64,000 nt of DNA from a virus (IMGVR_UViG_3300014613_000001:113774-177773); one strand, 5' to 3'; counted from the first letter of the stretch, positions 21,878 to 63,197 are shown. Notes: generated by a model not told the origin, from the letters alone. Made by a program: numbers and translations.

Positions 21878-21908
21878 TTACCTGCCGGAAGATTTAGTGA
21901 TCCCGGGT
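21878..21908 (+). repeat. 31-nt hairpin repeat, copy A (divergent)
   Basis: TTACCTG CCGGAA GATTTAGTGA TCCCGG GT. Confidence 0.7.
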
Positions 21909-21930
21909 ACTATACATGAGAGGAGTAGAG

Positions 21931-22455
21931 ATGAGACTGATTGCTGGAGTTGCCCAATCGCGTGACGGAAAATTCGCAACGATCCTGGTGATGGACGGGG
22001 ATCCGTTCTTCATCGGGCAAAGTGAGTCGAGGGAGAACGCGATCAACCGTGCCGATAAAATGAACGCTACGCTGGTCAAACTCGCAGACCTGGACGGGTT
22101 CAGTCCGAGTATAGACGCAAAGATGGAGAACCTTGCGCATCACACGGCCACAGTGCGACGGGCAGTAGGGCGTGGCGCGCTGCATACGTTCACCACTATG
22201 GTAGCTGCGGTAGGACGGATTGGAATGTGTGCCACGGGTGATGTGAAAGATGAGGATCATCATGGACTCTTCGATGCGTTTCTGCTGCTCACACTTGAAT
22301 CCCGGATCCTGCTACACCAACTGGGGTTTGATCATCGCCGGGTGATCGAACAAGGCCTAAGAGCTCTGGATAAGGTGCTACCCCTGATGGTGGCCGAGTC
22401 GGGAGTACCTGATCCTGGTAGTGATCCTGATAGTGATCCTGATAGTTTGAACTAA
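21931..22455 (+). CDS. Hypothetical protein
   Basis: AGGAG RBS; 12-bp tandem repeat at the 3' end (SDPD). Confidence 0.6.
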   Translation: MRLIAGVAQSRDGKFATILVMDGDPFFIGQSESRENAINRADKMNATLVKLADLDGFSPSIDAKMENLAHHTATVRRAVGRGALHTFTTMVAAVGRIGMCATGDVKDEDHHGLFDAFLLLTLESRILLHQLGFDHRRVIEQGLRALDKVLPLMVAESGVPDPGSDPDSDPDSLN

Positions 22456-22487
22456 GATCACGAGACGGGCTCTGAATGTATACAATA

Positions 22488-22556
22488 ACATCGAAAAGTA
22501 TAATAGAACGTTACTCATTTAGTATATGGGTAACGTTCTATTATACTTTTCGATGT
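22488..22556. repeat. AT-rich 27-bp perfect inverted repeat
   Basis: ACATCGAAAAGTATAATAGAACGTTAC (22488-22514) / exact reverse complement (22530-22556). Confidence 0.95.
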
Positions 22557-22573
22557 AATAGGAGGAGTAATCC

Positions 22574-23068
22574 GTGGAGGAGGAAGGGAAGATCAGTGAT
22601 CTTGCACAGGATCAATATAAAAATGAGATCAATTACTGGATAGGTGGGGCATTTTCGCTATCCGGAAGTTTCTTCATCGGACACGCAGGGCTCACCCCAT
22701 CCAGGAGGGTCAGATACAAAACAGCCGCACACATCATCACGTACACGAACAGGAGCAGCGCTCTGCTGCTGCTCCAGTATCACGTCGGAGGGAAAATCAG
22801 GCCCTACCGCGGGAGCCTGGCCAGATCACTATGGACGACGACGACTCAGAGGGAGCTCGAGAATCTATGTGAGATACTCGATCGTGTTCCTCTTCCAGTA
22901 CATCTGGAAAACCAATTGCGGATCATGAACAAATTCTTGGCCACGAGGCTTCCAGCTGGGAGGAAAGCCGAAGATCAGAAAGAACGTCTGGATCACATAT
23001 TCTGCGTTCAGGAGGAATTATGCCGTCAACTTCAACTGCTGAAGACGGAAGCACGACAGGGCATGTGA
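22574..23068 (+). CDS. Degenerate LAGLIDADG-like homing endonuclease/DNA-binding protein
   Basis: YWIGGAFSLSGSF aligns to the LAGLIDADG helix but has no acidic catalytic residue; LLLLQYHVGGKI and WT motifs follow. Confidence 0.5.
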   Translation: MEEEGKISDLAQDQYKNEINYWIGGAFSLSGSFFIGHAGLTPSRRVRYKTAAHIITYTNRSSALLLLQYHVGGKIRPYRGSLARSLWTTTTQRELENLCEILDRVPLPVHLENQLRIMNKFLATRLPAGRKAEDQKERLDHIFCVQEELCRQLQLLKTEARQGM

Positions 23069-23274
23069 GCACGGAACTCGTCCACCTTCTGGAAGCAGGG
23101 GGTGTCGAGGTAGAAGACATGGACGATCTCGTCCATGATCTTGCGAGTCAGATTGCAACAGCCGTGAATAACGGTGGTCTGAGCAGTCAAGTGGACTTCG
23201 TGTTGGAACAGCTCGGGGTGGCGGAGGGGCGCAGCGAGCTGATGACGATCGTGAAAGCGAAGAAGGACAAATAA
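23065..23274 (+). CDS. Hypothetical protein
   Basis: GTG coupled to previous stop; SQVDFVLEQLG. Confidence 0.55.
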   Translation: MSTELVHLLEAGGVEVEDMDDLVHDLASQIATAVNNGGLSSQVDFVLEQLGVAEGRSELMTIVKAKKDK

Positions 23275-60534: not shown

Positions 60535-60558
60535 TCCTCGCGCAACAGGAGTAAGCAT

Positions 60559-61219
60559 ATGTCTCATTACGTGGTGCTGGTGATCCTACCGAGTGGCGCT
60601 GTCCCGACTCAAGCATTGGTGGCCGACCTCATGGAGCCATTCAATGAATGTACTCAAGTAGAGGAGTACGATGAGCCCTGTTACTGCGTCGGCGATCGGT
60701 CATTGGCAGAGAGTAGAGCTGCTGTAGCGGGTGACATAGACAAGCTGCGGTTGAAATACTCCGAAGATCAAACTCAGGATTGGGACGAGATGATCGAGCC
60801 TGTACTGGCGCGGGCTAAGAAAATAGAAGTTGCACACCCATTGTACGGCACGCCGAACCCAGGTTGTACTAAATGCCAGGGGCTCGGCACTTACAAATCC
60901 ACTTACAATCCGGATAGTCTCTGGGACTGGTTTGACATCGGTGGGCGTTGGTCAGAGGAATTTGCAGAGTTTTCGGTAGGCGAGGGCAACTCGGGCTCGT
61001 TGCCACATACGGAAGTTCTCTCCATCTCCAGTGTGCGCGAAGCTACGGCTGAATAATGGATACATCACCCCGGAGAAGGACTGGTTCGCCAAGGGGAAGA
61101 TGGGGTGATTTGGCACGTCACGGTGTGAGCACGGAACAGAGAAGTTTATTCGTGAAGTGCTCAACCTGCTCGAGCGCTACATCGACCATGTGGGTGTGGT
61201 CGTGGACATGCACATCTGA
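60559..61219 (+). pseudogene. NPxxxWDWxxIGGRW-family phage gene broken by a frameshift and an in-frame TGA (61106-61108)
   Basis: ORF stops at 61056; the +1 frame carries ITPEKDWFAKGKMG*FG...VVVDMHI. Confidence 0.65.
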
Positions 61220-61231
61220 CAGGAGACAGCA

Positions 61232-61576
61232 ATGAGTCGATACTATGAGATTGATCTTACAGTGACGGGTTATGCTATTGAAAGGACCGATGACATAGAA
61301 AGCGCAGTTGGTGAGCTGTGGCCCTTTGACGACTGGTGGCGCAGCAAACCGGAAGATGAGATCGCCGCGATCTCTGCTGGTGGAAGTGGTAATCTCGGTG
61401 GCGGAGTATCACCAGAGGCGTTTGCGGAAATACTGGCGAAGGTCATCTGGGAAAAGAACGGAGGGTTCTGCGCGATAGAGATCACGGTCACGTTCGTCGA
61501 GCAGGCCCCGCATGAGACCTACAAGCCGAACAAAGAACTCTTTGAGCGCCTGACCCGAGCAAAAGAGCAGTCATGA
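61232..61576 (+). CDS. Hypothetical protein
   Basis: AGGAG RBS. Confidence 0.6.
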   Translation: MSRYYEIDLTVTGYAIERTDDIESAVGELWPFDDWWRSKPEDEIAAISAGGSGNLGGGVSPEAFAEILAKVIWEKNGGFCAIEITVTFVEQAPHETYKPNKELFERLTRAKEQS

Positions 61577-62442
61577 AAATTCATGTGATGGTACCGCAGG
61601 TTTACCTGCCCTCGGTAAACTATGCAAGGAAGGAGCTGGCAAAGTGCGCGTGCATGGCAGCTTTGAGTCGTGAGCGACTGATTGCTTTTGAAGTTGCTGG
61701 TGAGGTCGTTAGCTGTTTCGAGAGCGCGTATCCCTCCGTGACCATTGACCCAACGCCGTCACCTAGTGTGGCTACGGGCCCTATGTTTTCCGTAGGGACT
61801 CCGGTAACGATCAGTGGCGGGTCGTCGATTGGTCTTCCATCAGAGTTAGAGGTTCTCCCCTTCTCTGAAGCTGAGGCGATGCTCAGTCGTCTCTTGAACT
61901 TCAAACCTTTCCCGCATGAATCTGTGCTTGAGCACGGCAACTTCTCTGTGACCTTCAGGATTAGCAGAGTGGCCACCCATGAGTTGGTTAGGCATCGTTT
62001 GGGAGGAATCACACAGTCCAGCACGAGGTACATCGGCTACAACCTCCGGGACGTCGTCTACCTCATCAAGCCCATGGGAGCTCCTGACAGGCTACTGGGA
62101 CAATATGACGAAGACTCGGCCTGCTACTACGCCGACGACTGGGTAATGCAGATGTTCTCCACCATGAACAGCTACCGGAAGCTCATCGAGATAGAGAAGT
62201 GGAAGCGGGAGGACGCCCGCTATAATCTCGCACATGCCCTGGCCGCCTGGATCGGCTACACCACCAACTTCCGTCAGTGGAGGCACATGGTGTCTCTTCG
62301 TGATCACAAGAAGGCTGCTCCAGAGATGCAGTTCATCTTCGGACAGATCCGAGAGTATCTCGGGTTGGTCAGCCCCATATTGCTCGAAAATATGGAAGGA
62401 GCAGGAGATGGACAGCGTACGGCAGCTCACGGGAACGATTGA
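61573..62442 (+). CDS. thyX: FAD-dependent thymidylate synthase
   Basis: PHESVLEH; ISRVATHELVRHR; TQSSTRY; EDARY.L; TNFRQWRH..LR. Confidence 0.9.
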   Translation: MKIHVMVPQVYLPSVNYARKELAKCACMAALSRERLIAFEVAGEVVSCFESAYPSVTIDPTPSPSVATGPMFSVGTPVTISGGSSIGLPSELEVLPFSEAEAMLSRLLNFKPFPHESVLEHGNFSVTFRISRVATHELVRHRLGGITQSSTRYIGYNLRDVVYLIKPMGAPDRLLGQYDEDSACYYADDWVMQMFSTMNSYRKLIEIEKWKREDARYNLAHALAAWIGYTTNFRQWRHMVSLRDHKKAAPEMQFIFGQIREYLGLVSPILLENMEGAGDGQRTAAHGND

Positions 62443-63040
62443 GGCAACACAAGAGGCGGACATCGTTGTCCACACCGGCCCTGGAAATAGCGAATGCGAT
62501 CTCGGGCGACTCCACATGATGCTCGAACGACTCTACCCGGACCAGAGCATTACCGTGGGAATTGGAGATCGCTTCGTTATCAAGATGCGCGAGTATGATT
62601 CACATGTCAGTACTCCCGCAATTCGGGCGGCGATCAGAAGGGCCTGCCTACCCGAGCACAAGAACCCGAATCTCGAGGTGGAGCCCAAGGACCGAGCACC
62701 CCTTCCGATCGGACAGACGCCGGAAGGAGAGATGGTCTTCGTTCCTGTCGCCGGCCCCCGCGCATCTCAGTTCGTCCAGTTTAGGGGGGAGGTAGTCGTG
62801 TGCTCCGGGTGTAGATGCACAATGAGGATCCGAGGCCCGGGCGCGGTCAAACACGTCATTATTGACGACAACGGGGCGGTCTATCATTTGAGTTGTGCTC
62901 AACGTGTGCGGCAGTGGGCGATCGAAGTAGCCAAGTCTGCTGCCGACGTTCAACTCACCTTGCCGTGGAAGTCTCGGGCTGAGGACCCGAAAGATGGAAC
63001 AGAAATACCACGATTGGATCGAGAAGCACGAAAGTCATGA
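62408..63040 (+). CDS. Hypothetical protein
   Basis: AGGAG RBS; CSGC...HLSC. Confidence 0.5.
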   Translation: MDSVRQLTGTIEATQEADIVVHTGPGNSECDLGRLHMMLERLYPDQSITVGIGDRFVIKMREYDSHVSTPAIRAAIRRACLPEHKNPNLEVEPKDRAPLPIGQTPEGEMVFVPVAGPRASQFVQFRGEVVVCSGCRCTMRIRGPGAVKHVIIDDNGAVYHLSCAQRVRQWAIEVAKSAADVQLTLPWKSRAEDPKDGTEIPRLDREARKS

Positions 63041-63166
63041 GACCCACGGGTACTGCCACCACTTCGCAGAGTTGATGGCAGGGGAATTCCCTTAGCTCAT
63101 ACACGTCAATGGGTGTTACGTCGAGCCCGGCATCAACACATTACGGATACGATTGACCCGAACTAC
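62994..63166 (+). pseudogene. Decayed paralog of 43598-43984
   Basis: MEQKYHDWI...GYC..FAELMAGEFP* (TAG 63093-63095), then TIDP in another frame just before repeat K. Confidence 0.75.
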
Positions 63167-63197
63167 ATACCTGCTGGGAGGTTTAGTGATCCCAGAC
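63167..63197 (+). repeat. 31-nt hairpin repeat, copy K
   Basis: ATACCTG CTGGGA GGTTTAGTGA TCCCAG AC. Confidence 0.9.

Follow-up and report, generated by a model that had tools for sequence, protein, structure and literature searches.

A dispersed hairpin repeat family in a groundwater phage and its probable reader, a phage-encoded Cas12m

The 64,000-nucleotide stretch IMGVR_UViG_3300014613_000001:113774-177773 (hereafter the window; source record G000:C1:113774-177773) is the right-hand 64 kb of a 177,773-bp phage record in IMG/VR, and twelve copies of a 31-nt hairpin, lettered A to L, lie dispersed in it. What reads such an element, and what might a virus gain by placing it between so many of its genes? 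An initial annotation made from the window alone proposed that the copies are under selection as a single-stranded RNA fold recognised by a specific protein, and presented the family as a candidate undescribed RNA system. The first proposal is borne out by two covarying helices and a match to the Cas12m scaffold. The second gives way to a known subtype: each copy is almost certainly the repeat-derived scaffold (5′ handle) of a CRISPR RNA (crRNA) for the phage's own Cas12m, the effector of type V-M systems.

A hairpin repeat and its effector

The genome is that of a lytic-type groundwater phage of about 178 kb, with an exact terminal overlap of 123 bp and a completeness rating of 100%. All twelve window copies were found at the coordinates and with the sequences given in the initial annotation. 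A degenerate core pattern with at most one mismatch recovers 10 of the 12, against 0.01 expected from shuffled sequence, and the diverged copies A (core 21885-21906) and L (core from 54236) are recovered by nhmmer and the covariance model. Neither the profile nor the covariance model detects a thirteenth copy in the window, and positions 1-21,870 are empty. The covariance-model scan of the full genome that the annotation had proposed as a check yields 38 copies with both helices covarying, all at E ≤ 2e-6, the next match standing at E 0.27 (the model's table has 37 rows, since two neighbouring copies overlap by 1 base). Of these, 23 lie at 1.8-17 kb, 3 at 67 kb and 12 at 135.6-177 kb; read across the genome junction, 35 of the 38 fall within one stretch of about 59 kb occupied mostly by small open reading frames (ORFs).

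The 6-bp stem is paired in 98.2% of cells over the 38 copies. Both compensatory swaps first seen in the window recur, pair 4 being G-C in 24 copies, A-U in 11 and G-U in 3, and pair 2 being U-A in 34 and C-G in 3. Single changes had been said to pair only on the written strand, and every one of the ten one-sided changes is indeed G.U on that strand; A.C cells, which would be wobbles if read on the opposite strand, number three genome-wide (copy A and genome copy 10365). The initial annotation overlooked a second helix of 3 bp, which joins leader columns 10-12 to the first three loop bases, columns 21-23. It is 96.5% paired, with both-sided changes in all three pairs, and its variants are ACC/GGT (19 copies), GCC/GGC (16), GTT/AAC and ACT/AGT; one of its covarying pairs is A-U in 19 copies, G-C in 16 and G-U in 3. 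Between the helices a variable column 13 precedes G14 (36/38 copies), and the 6-bp stem is followed by A37 (36/38) and C38 (29/38). The loop is 10 nt, as claimed for the family, with copy L as a departure (Table 1).

In the fold that these columns suggest, the leader RCC would pair with the first three loop bases and be followed by one unpaired base and then G, and the 6-bp helix would close 2 nt (A, C) before the following sequence, with G and A forming a non-canonical closing pair. The scaffold of Cas12m2 consists of a short stem stacked on a 6-bp pseudoknot helix, with a flipped-out A, a G(-23).A(-2) pair and C(-1) ahead of the guide (PMC10442227, section 7). Feature by feature, the predicted phage RNA is this published scaffold. 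The remark in the initial annotation that a stem closed 2 nt before variable sequence resembles a class 2 crRNA handle was thus well placed as to type V; the subtype is V-M, with Cas12m, not Cas12j. A scan of Rfam returned no CRISPR-DR family or other real match, only spurious microRNA matches on a large palindrome.

The same features bear on a reading of the element as a duplex-DNA operator for a dimeric repressor, or as an intrinsic terminator hairpin. The 6-bp arms do form an inverted repeat and many copies sit just past stop codons, but the second helix is asymmetric and covaries, the one-sided changes favour G.U on one strand (10 versus 3), the element shares homology with CRISPR repeats, and in none of the 38 copies is the stem followed by a T run. 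Fold energies of -7 to -10 kcal/mol (z -0.6 to -2) are weak taken alone. Because of this weak fold and the missing T run we consider the element neither terminator nor duplex operator, a reading to which we give almost no credence. The asymmetric second helix, together with the orientation rules described below, likewise contradicts the nut-like antitermination site that the initial annotation offered as a role and the palindromic operator that it named under refutation.

The annotation identified no effector within the window, which stands; a search of the remaining genome, as it had recommended, located one on the far side of the terminal overlap, 3.3 kb past the right-hand limit of the window. 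It is a 615-amino-acid (aa) ORF at genome positions 3458-5305, between two tandem repeat clusters. Against PDB sequences (phmmer) it matches Cas12m 23vw at E 6e-40 over residues 11-574, and Cas12m2 8hio at E 1.5e-14. It is the sole gene of the genome with a TNB domain, and the four ribbon Cys of this zinc ribbon are invariant; the match to Pfam Cas12f1-like_TNB, at 20-24 bits, lies under the family cut-off. No match to Cas1 was found across the phage genome. Aligned with 12 homologues, the protein has Asn at the site of the RuvC-I Asp (AINCGWR) and retains the RuvC-II Glu and the RuvC-III Asp, giving N-E-D. RuvC variants N-D-D, H-D-D and D-E-D are all non-cutting (PMC11013384), and from its sequence the phage protein is probably a DNA binder rather than a cutter. 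H257/R258 and R241 are invariant in the same alignment and, by our count on the printed alignment, correspond to H269/R270 and R245 of Cas12m2, the residues that recognise C(-1), the G.A pair and the flipped-out base (PMC10442227, section 7).

Finding the Cas12m gene and the scaffold match disposed of several earlier candidates for the element, namely a promoter for the phage's own RNA polymerase, an N4-type hairpin promoter, iterons or parS, and type III antitoxin repeats. It also bears on RNA anti-CRISPRs (Racrs), under which solitary handles would be decoys that soak up a host Cas12m and disarm a host V-M system. Solitary phage repeat units are a known anti-CRISPR strategy (PMC10651486), and the handles are intact while many of the guides look accidental. 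Against this, the phage has its own Cas12m with the scaffold-reading residues conserved, and 38 copies are far above the number in known Racr loci. Exact-pattern scans also gave no other array with this repeat, with zero matches in IMG/VR and, in JGI metagenome contigs, two chance partial matches that lack the stem. The decoy role, which the initial annotation had listed, is thus possible but found no support, and we consider it very improbable.

Repeats beside cas12m in other viruses point to the same identity. The nearest homologue of the protein (55% identity), on a Mu-like phage contig, is encoded ahead of a regular array of ten 36-nt repeats that share with the phage element GC.AATGCCAG, the 6-bp stem, the GGCTT.. 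loop and the terminal AC. Arrays directly 3′ of cas12m in other viral contigs have in common ATGCCAG-stem-GGCTT..-stem-AC, and in other phages the position of the 3-bp helix reads AGGA/TCCT and ACCC/GGGT. A covariance model built from 19 repeats next to cas12m in 10 other viral contigs, with no sequence from this genome (R2), was run on the phage, and 22 of its 23 best matches are known copies (E 0.001-1), copy L being the best of all. A model built from this genome only (R1) is too specific to detect repeats of other phages, and on 204 kb of related phage loci, where cas12m was not looked for, both models returned zero matches.

Placement and possible roles of the copies

Placement was assessed on our own codon-usage-based gene calls (229 genes). 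Intergenic sequence makes up 8.7% of the genome while 34 of the 38 copies lie in it (p 5e-32), which upholds for most copies the intergenic placement originally described; window copies I and L overlap called ORFs, although their true sites are probably a leader or a doubtful small ORF, and copy L would lie within the leader of a gene that probably starts at 54310. Copies run in the direction of the flanking genes at 32 sites and against it at 6. All six antisense copies belong to a distinct type 2 subfamily (loop GGCTTAYYGA, stem CTGAGA/TCTCAG), and five of them share an upstream sequence of about 60 nt with TTGACA, a 16-nt spacer and TAAGCT. Its conservation, and a parallel in an unrelated phage contig (G001, below), suggest that this TTGACA-N16-TAAGCT module is a promoter; a scan with the sigma-70 consensus showed no enrichment, and the -10 part of the module is weak. 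What follows the handle in the antisense units, their would-be guide, is the antisense of the preceding gene's 3′ end, and the handle overlaps a stop codon at window copy E and at copy 1840 outside the window. Copies are concentrated among small accessory ORFs, away from conserved late genes. At about ten sites a start codon lies 13-29 nt past the handle, and cas12m itself begins 24 nt after the last repeat before it.

Every copy is thus, very probably, placed for transcription in the handle sense: 32 would ride on phage mRNAs in the gaps between genes, and among the six antisense copies five would use their own TTGACA-N16-TAAGCT module. The sequencing runs listed with this phage are three groundwater DNA runs, with no RNA run among them; checked over the phage, they showed only contig breaks at repeats.

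Beside cas12m the repeats form irregular arrays of five units upstream (3171-3431) and five plus two downstream (5321-5956), with periods of 39-91 nt and gaps past the 31-nt minimal scaffold that are mostly 15-29 nt and once 8 nt. Neighbouring units have common spacer starts (GARACGACCACGTCAC) while their repeats differ by compensatory changes, which indicates that the arrays grew by duplication and not by adaptation. Units with shared flanks and even shared spacer starts are 3262/3317/3363, 16882/142154 and 142755/154241. Such sharing, in the absence of Cas1, speaks for duplication rather than Cas1-Cas2 acquisition and would also be expected if the copies, though bound by Cas12m, had no adaptive role and had reached permissive intergenic sites in the accessory region through duplication and recombination, persisting since the fold is cheap to keep. 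The clustering of copies within about 60 kb around cas12m, across the genome junction, fits such neutral spread as well. However, compensatory changes keep both helices in diverged copies, the orientation is non-random (32 of 38 with the genes), antisense copies carry a promoter-like module and a similar layout arose in an unrelated Cas12m phage; we regard neutral spread as improbable.

How might the solitary copies be used? Characterised Cas12m proteins cut pre-crRNA upstream of the scaffold and bind DNA by T- or C-rich protospacer-adjacent motifs (PAMs) with no cleavage of that DNA (PMC11013384). By analogy, the phage protein would bind every handle, cleave on its upstream side and retain the following 17-20 nt or so as a guide, and among the four roles offered in the initial annotation it is the guide scaffold or processing site that fits. 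Guides in the mini-arrays that flank cas12m resemble spacers (15-29 nt); a solitary copy has the phage's own adjacent sequence as its guide. Since the handle's GAC occupies the PAM position, binding of the phage's own locus as DNA appears unlikely, and an effect in cis, on RNA, becomes the likeliest. At gene junctions Cas12m would cleave early or accessory transcripts that are polycistronic; it would then remain at the 5′ end of the message downstream, whose Shine–Dalgarno sequence (SD) often falls within the first 17 nt. Bound there, it would tune stability or translation, that of the cas12m message included.

That Cas12m handles the phage's own transcripts in cis at the solitary copies is a committed guess that we hold tentatively. 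In its favour, the copies lie preferentially beside small accessory ORFs, and one copy pair is only 8 nt apart, below guide length, so that this unit could not yield a guide. Taken as a whole, handle identity, expression logic and cis role form our best explanation, held with somewhat less than even confidence. It is possible, though we would commit ourselves less, that a non-cutting Cas12m has been turned into a regulator of phage gene expression, with the 38 handles as cut-and-hold sites that would punctuate operons and gate translation (again including that of cas12m) and with the antisense units as a second layer.

Several points weigh against this explanation. We infer the transcription, the processing and the binding of the copies alike. 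Cas12m is to our knowledge solely a DNA binder, and we know of no demonstration that any Cas12m acts on mRNA. The closeness of handle and SD may be the mere outcome of fitting a 31-36-nt element into short gaps. Antisense units, with putative promoters of their own, are unexplained by mRNA processing and fit the making of more guides better, and mini-array units spaced regularly at 15-29 nt point to the production of real guides. In some Cas12m phages (G004) all repeats sit in one array, so that dispersal is not required for the system. Finally, the training repeats of alignment A5 were pre-filtered for a perfect stem, making their 100% pairing partly one of construction; the diversity of their stems is not produced by that filter.

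The antisense units are better accommodated if solitary copies of the same handle make self-derived guides that act in trans, in conflict between phages. The guide would be the next gene's leader or start, or the preceding gene's 3′ end in antisense; with the handle in place of the PAM, that locus would be immune in the phage itself, and co-infecting relatives or prophages that lack the insert would be bound and silenced. A single rule then covers sense and antisense units, and it agrees both with the known PAM-dependent DNA binding by which Cas12m blocks transcription (PMC11013384, PMC10442227) and with the known deployment of mini-arrays by viruses against their relatives (PMC11656645). In viral contig L103 the end of the homologous gene agrees with the guide of copy E in 16 of 17 positions, next to a flank (CTTCCT) that is C/T-rich like reported PAMs, and in a relative without the insert the PAM side of antisense units would be the complement of the next gene's SD, also C/T-rich. 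Yet a match within 1 mismatch occurs at only 1 of 80 homologous loci, and codon conservation accounts for it. Most solitary copies stand ahead of small, fast-evolving ORFs and not of conserved essential genes, one unit has only 8 nt before the next handle, and a search for a near relative in which to score presence or absence of the insert turned up none. It is the better account of the antisense units that keeps action in trans in contention, as an unlikely reading but the least unlikely of the alternatives to action in cis.

Target searches were largely empty. A second-site search with the 38 guides (at most 4 mismatches over 20 nt) found no match at a meaningful place in the genome, and BLAST of the array region against INPHARED gave chance matches only. 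The sole 13-nt seed match outside the copies, GGATCAACATGAG, lies at window 25553-25565, immediately ahead of the SD of a gene whose start is at 25579. It is identical to the initial 13 nt of what the antisense unit at genome 1840 would target, with a TCT flank ahead on the guide strand. About 0.2 such matches are expected by chance over all guides and one was found, which makes the site a weak lead as a regulatory target.

Window copies and neighbouring loci

The individual window copies range from solitary sense handles to antisense units with an upstream module (Table 1).

Table 1. Hairpin copies in the window, by position (rc, reverse complement; SD, Shine–Dalgarno sequence)
Copy	Position	Strand	Form	Details
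A	21878..21908	+	Most diverged sense copy	CCGGAA..TCCCGG, end GT; 34.5 bits, E 1.4e-6; start codon 22 nt past handle, putting the SD inside the would-be guide
B	28379..28454	-	Antisense type 2 unit	Handle 28379-28409; TAAGCT rc 28427-28432; TTGACA rc 28449-28454; guide region leftwards from 28378, antisense to a 26-nt gap and then to the upstream gene's 3′ end
C	28975..29005	+	Sense type 1 solitary handle	G.U at stem pair 4
D	40461..40491	+	Sense solitary handle	G.U at stem pair 3; 16 nt past stop codon; 49 nt ahead of the start of the conserved 669-aa phrog_1735 gene
E	42550..42625	-	Antisense type 2 unit	Handle 42550-42580, at the stop codon of the 669-aa gene; TAAGCT rc 42598-42603; TTGACA rc 42620-42625; spacer 16 nt
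F	42638..42668	+	Sense solitary handle	Back to back with the putative promoter module of copy E
G	43509..43539	+	Sense solitary handle	Top score of all copies, 55.3 bits
H	43995..44070	-	Antisense type 2 unit	G.U at stem pair 6; TAAGCT rc 44043-44048; TTGACA rc 44065-44070
I	47087..47129	-	Degenerate antisense unit	Module without the -10 part; handle end GC, not AC
L	54229..54277	+	Type-2-like handle, sense orientation	9-nt loop; 3′ stem arm ATCTCAG three times
J	58923..58953	+	Sense solitary handle	14 nt past stop codon
K	63167..63197	+	Sense solitary handle	Start codon 18 nt on, putting the SD inside the would-be guide

The 669-aa protein encoded at window 40541-42550, flanked by copies D and E/F, matches phrog_1735 at E 8e-256 and is found at 44-69% identity across hundreds of large phages (Ackermannviridae, phiCbK, RSL1). 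It has no match among Pfam families or PDB sequences, and annotations elsewhere call it hypothetical or 'RNA polymerase'. The best relative of the phage reached through this gene, at 69% protein identity, is too distant for comparing intergenic gaps, and a search through Cas12m found no close relatives.

Between copies C and D lies a G+C-rich island (window 30000-36000, 63-65% G+C against about 55% in the surroundings), which encodes a class-V aminotransferase or cysteine desulfurase-like protein (31243-32523) and a weak radical-SAM match (33493-34530). From its composition and genes it looks like an acquired metabolic module. No close bacterial relative of the cysteine-desulfurase gene was found when one was sought as a clue to the host, and a host search with the Cas12m profile gave only distant matches in metagenome-assembled genomes.

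Three loci outside the window are recorded alongside. An RNase HII gene at genome 6110-6730 (L009; Pfam E 8e-29) lies 0.8 kb downstream of cas12m, flanked by handle copies 5935 and 6746; RNase HII cuts the RNA of RNA-DNA hybrids, and its position beside an R-loop-forming effector may or may not be coincidence. At genome 14406-14681 (L009), an A+T-rich large inverted repeat with 108-nt arms that are 73% complementary (24-nt outer arms, 92%) marks the switch from a rightward to a leftward gene block and is a candidate origin or bidirectional control region; the spurious microRNA matches in Rfam arose from it. The 2048-aa ORF at genome 91846-97992 (L013:11846-17992) joins RNA polymerase beta and beta′ families in one chain, matching phrog_25354 at E 2e-123 and several 'RNA polymerase beta subunit' PHROGs; to judge by these matches it is probably a phage-encoded multisubunit-type RNA polymerase fused into a single polypeptide.

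Other Cas12m phages and known systems

Forty IMG/VR contigs contain Cas12m relatives, many of them 100-210 kb long and most with an array directly downstream of the gene. Dispersal of repeats among such phages is recurrent, not universal. In G001, an unrelated 82.7-kb phage contig whose Cas12m-like protein is 24% identical, there are 15 dispersed copies and no array, and its three antisense copies form a subfamily of their own behind TTGACC-N16-TACAGT. Four further large Cas12m phages with model hits were compared: G005 has seven scattered hits and G002 (L023) one solitary copy, found by repeat search; in G004, 27 of 27 model hits lie inside the array, and G006 has one outlier. A link between dispersal and the dead RuvC-I residue was rejected, as G005 has D-E-D yet dispersed copies. 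Two further Cas12m phages drew attention for other features. In IMGVR_UViG_3300023202_000142 (L033:3239-17392) a 40-nt motif, CTTGAC..GTGCAC..GTGCACATATTGT, occurs seven times upstream of genes and is probably an early promoter with a palindromic operator. The 180-kb phage JGI Ga0233437_1000142 has a compact array of 28 units with a period of 47-48 nt, and encodes an AcrVA2-like protein (L019:2903-4186) 7 kb upstream of cas12m.

Cas12m has been known as a DNA roadblock carried on plasmids, and we know of no CRISPR effector among any Cas12 described as acting mainly on self RNA. Here a complete phage genome combines a Cas12m effector with 38 structurally maintained handles at gene junctions, a layout similar to that in at least one unrelated Cas12m phage that was checked (G001), with scattered copies in another. 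Use of the solitary handles would mean either that viral gene regulation has exapted CRISPR parts, or that a virus has a cheap way to convert its own sequences into guides against relatives while the carrier is immune. The compact units (31-nt handle and guide of about 17 nt), and the natural single-guide genes with their own putative promoter, would be of practical interest for the design of CRISPR interference.

Characterised type V-M systems (MmCas12m2, GoCas12m and MsCas12m; PMC10442227, PMC11013384) share with the phage system full-length effector homology including the TNB zinc ribbon, a non-canonical RuvC site, and the absence of adaptation genes and of any partner like a trans-activating crRNA. 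The repeats agree in their pseudoknot, G.A closing pair, flipped base and AC ahead of the guide; the loop is 10 nt here against 8 nt in Cas12m2. V-M systems are reported on plasmids and in 'some prophages' (PMC11656645). Here, in contrast, the carrier is a 178-kb lytic-type phage, not a plasmid or chromosome; the arrays are irregular (39-91-nt periods), with diverged repeats and duplication-related spacers, and solitary copies, which make up about half of the total, are scattered among the phage genes of a stretch of roughly 60 kb. A literature search found no paper on genome-wide dispersed Cas12m repeats.

The closest described counterpart is myxophage MV-1, a phage with Cas12m and an adjacent array that a September 2026 preprint calls the first (bioRxiv 10.64898/2026.09.14.751636). 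MV-1 and the IMG/VR contigs resemble the present phage in having a Cas12m without cas1/2/4, the same repeat family and no identifiable protospacers. Whereas in MV-1 and most of the IMG/VR relatives a single compact array lies immediately 3′ of the gene, the repeats here and in G001 are dispersed genome-wide, and unlike MV-1 this phage has antisense units with their own promoter-like module.

Units outside arrays, one of them just upstream of a cas gene, recall standalone regulatory repeats such as CreA/CreR and tracr-L (bioRxiv 10.1101/2023.03.03.530964). Those repeats recruit an effector for regulation and not for defence, occur inside cas loci at one or two per genome, and give crRNA-like RNAs that act by partial complementarity to a promoter with a PAM (10.1101/2023.03.03.530964). 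The phage differs from the CreA/CreR type in its 38 copies, in having no second-site target in the genome and in a guide that is the flanking sequence itself. Racrs (PMC10651486) and viral mini-arrays (PMC11656645) likewise place single CRISPR repeats in non-coding sequence of phages; Racr units are expressed as small RNAs that load a Cas effector, mimicking host repeats and inhibiting the host effector (PMC10651486). In the present phage the cognate effector is its own, and the copies are mostly embedded in what would be mRNAs.

For the proposed processing in cis, the nearest parallel comes from outside CRISPR biology. In phage T7, RNase III sites are hairpins at the junctions of polycistronic early mRNAs that are cut by a specific endonuclease. 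By analogy only, the handles described here would serve as such sites for an enzyme that is phage-encoded and CRISPR-derived and that, after the proposed cut, would stay on its product.

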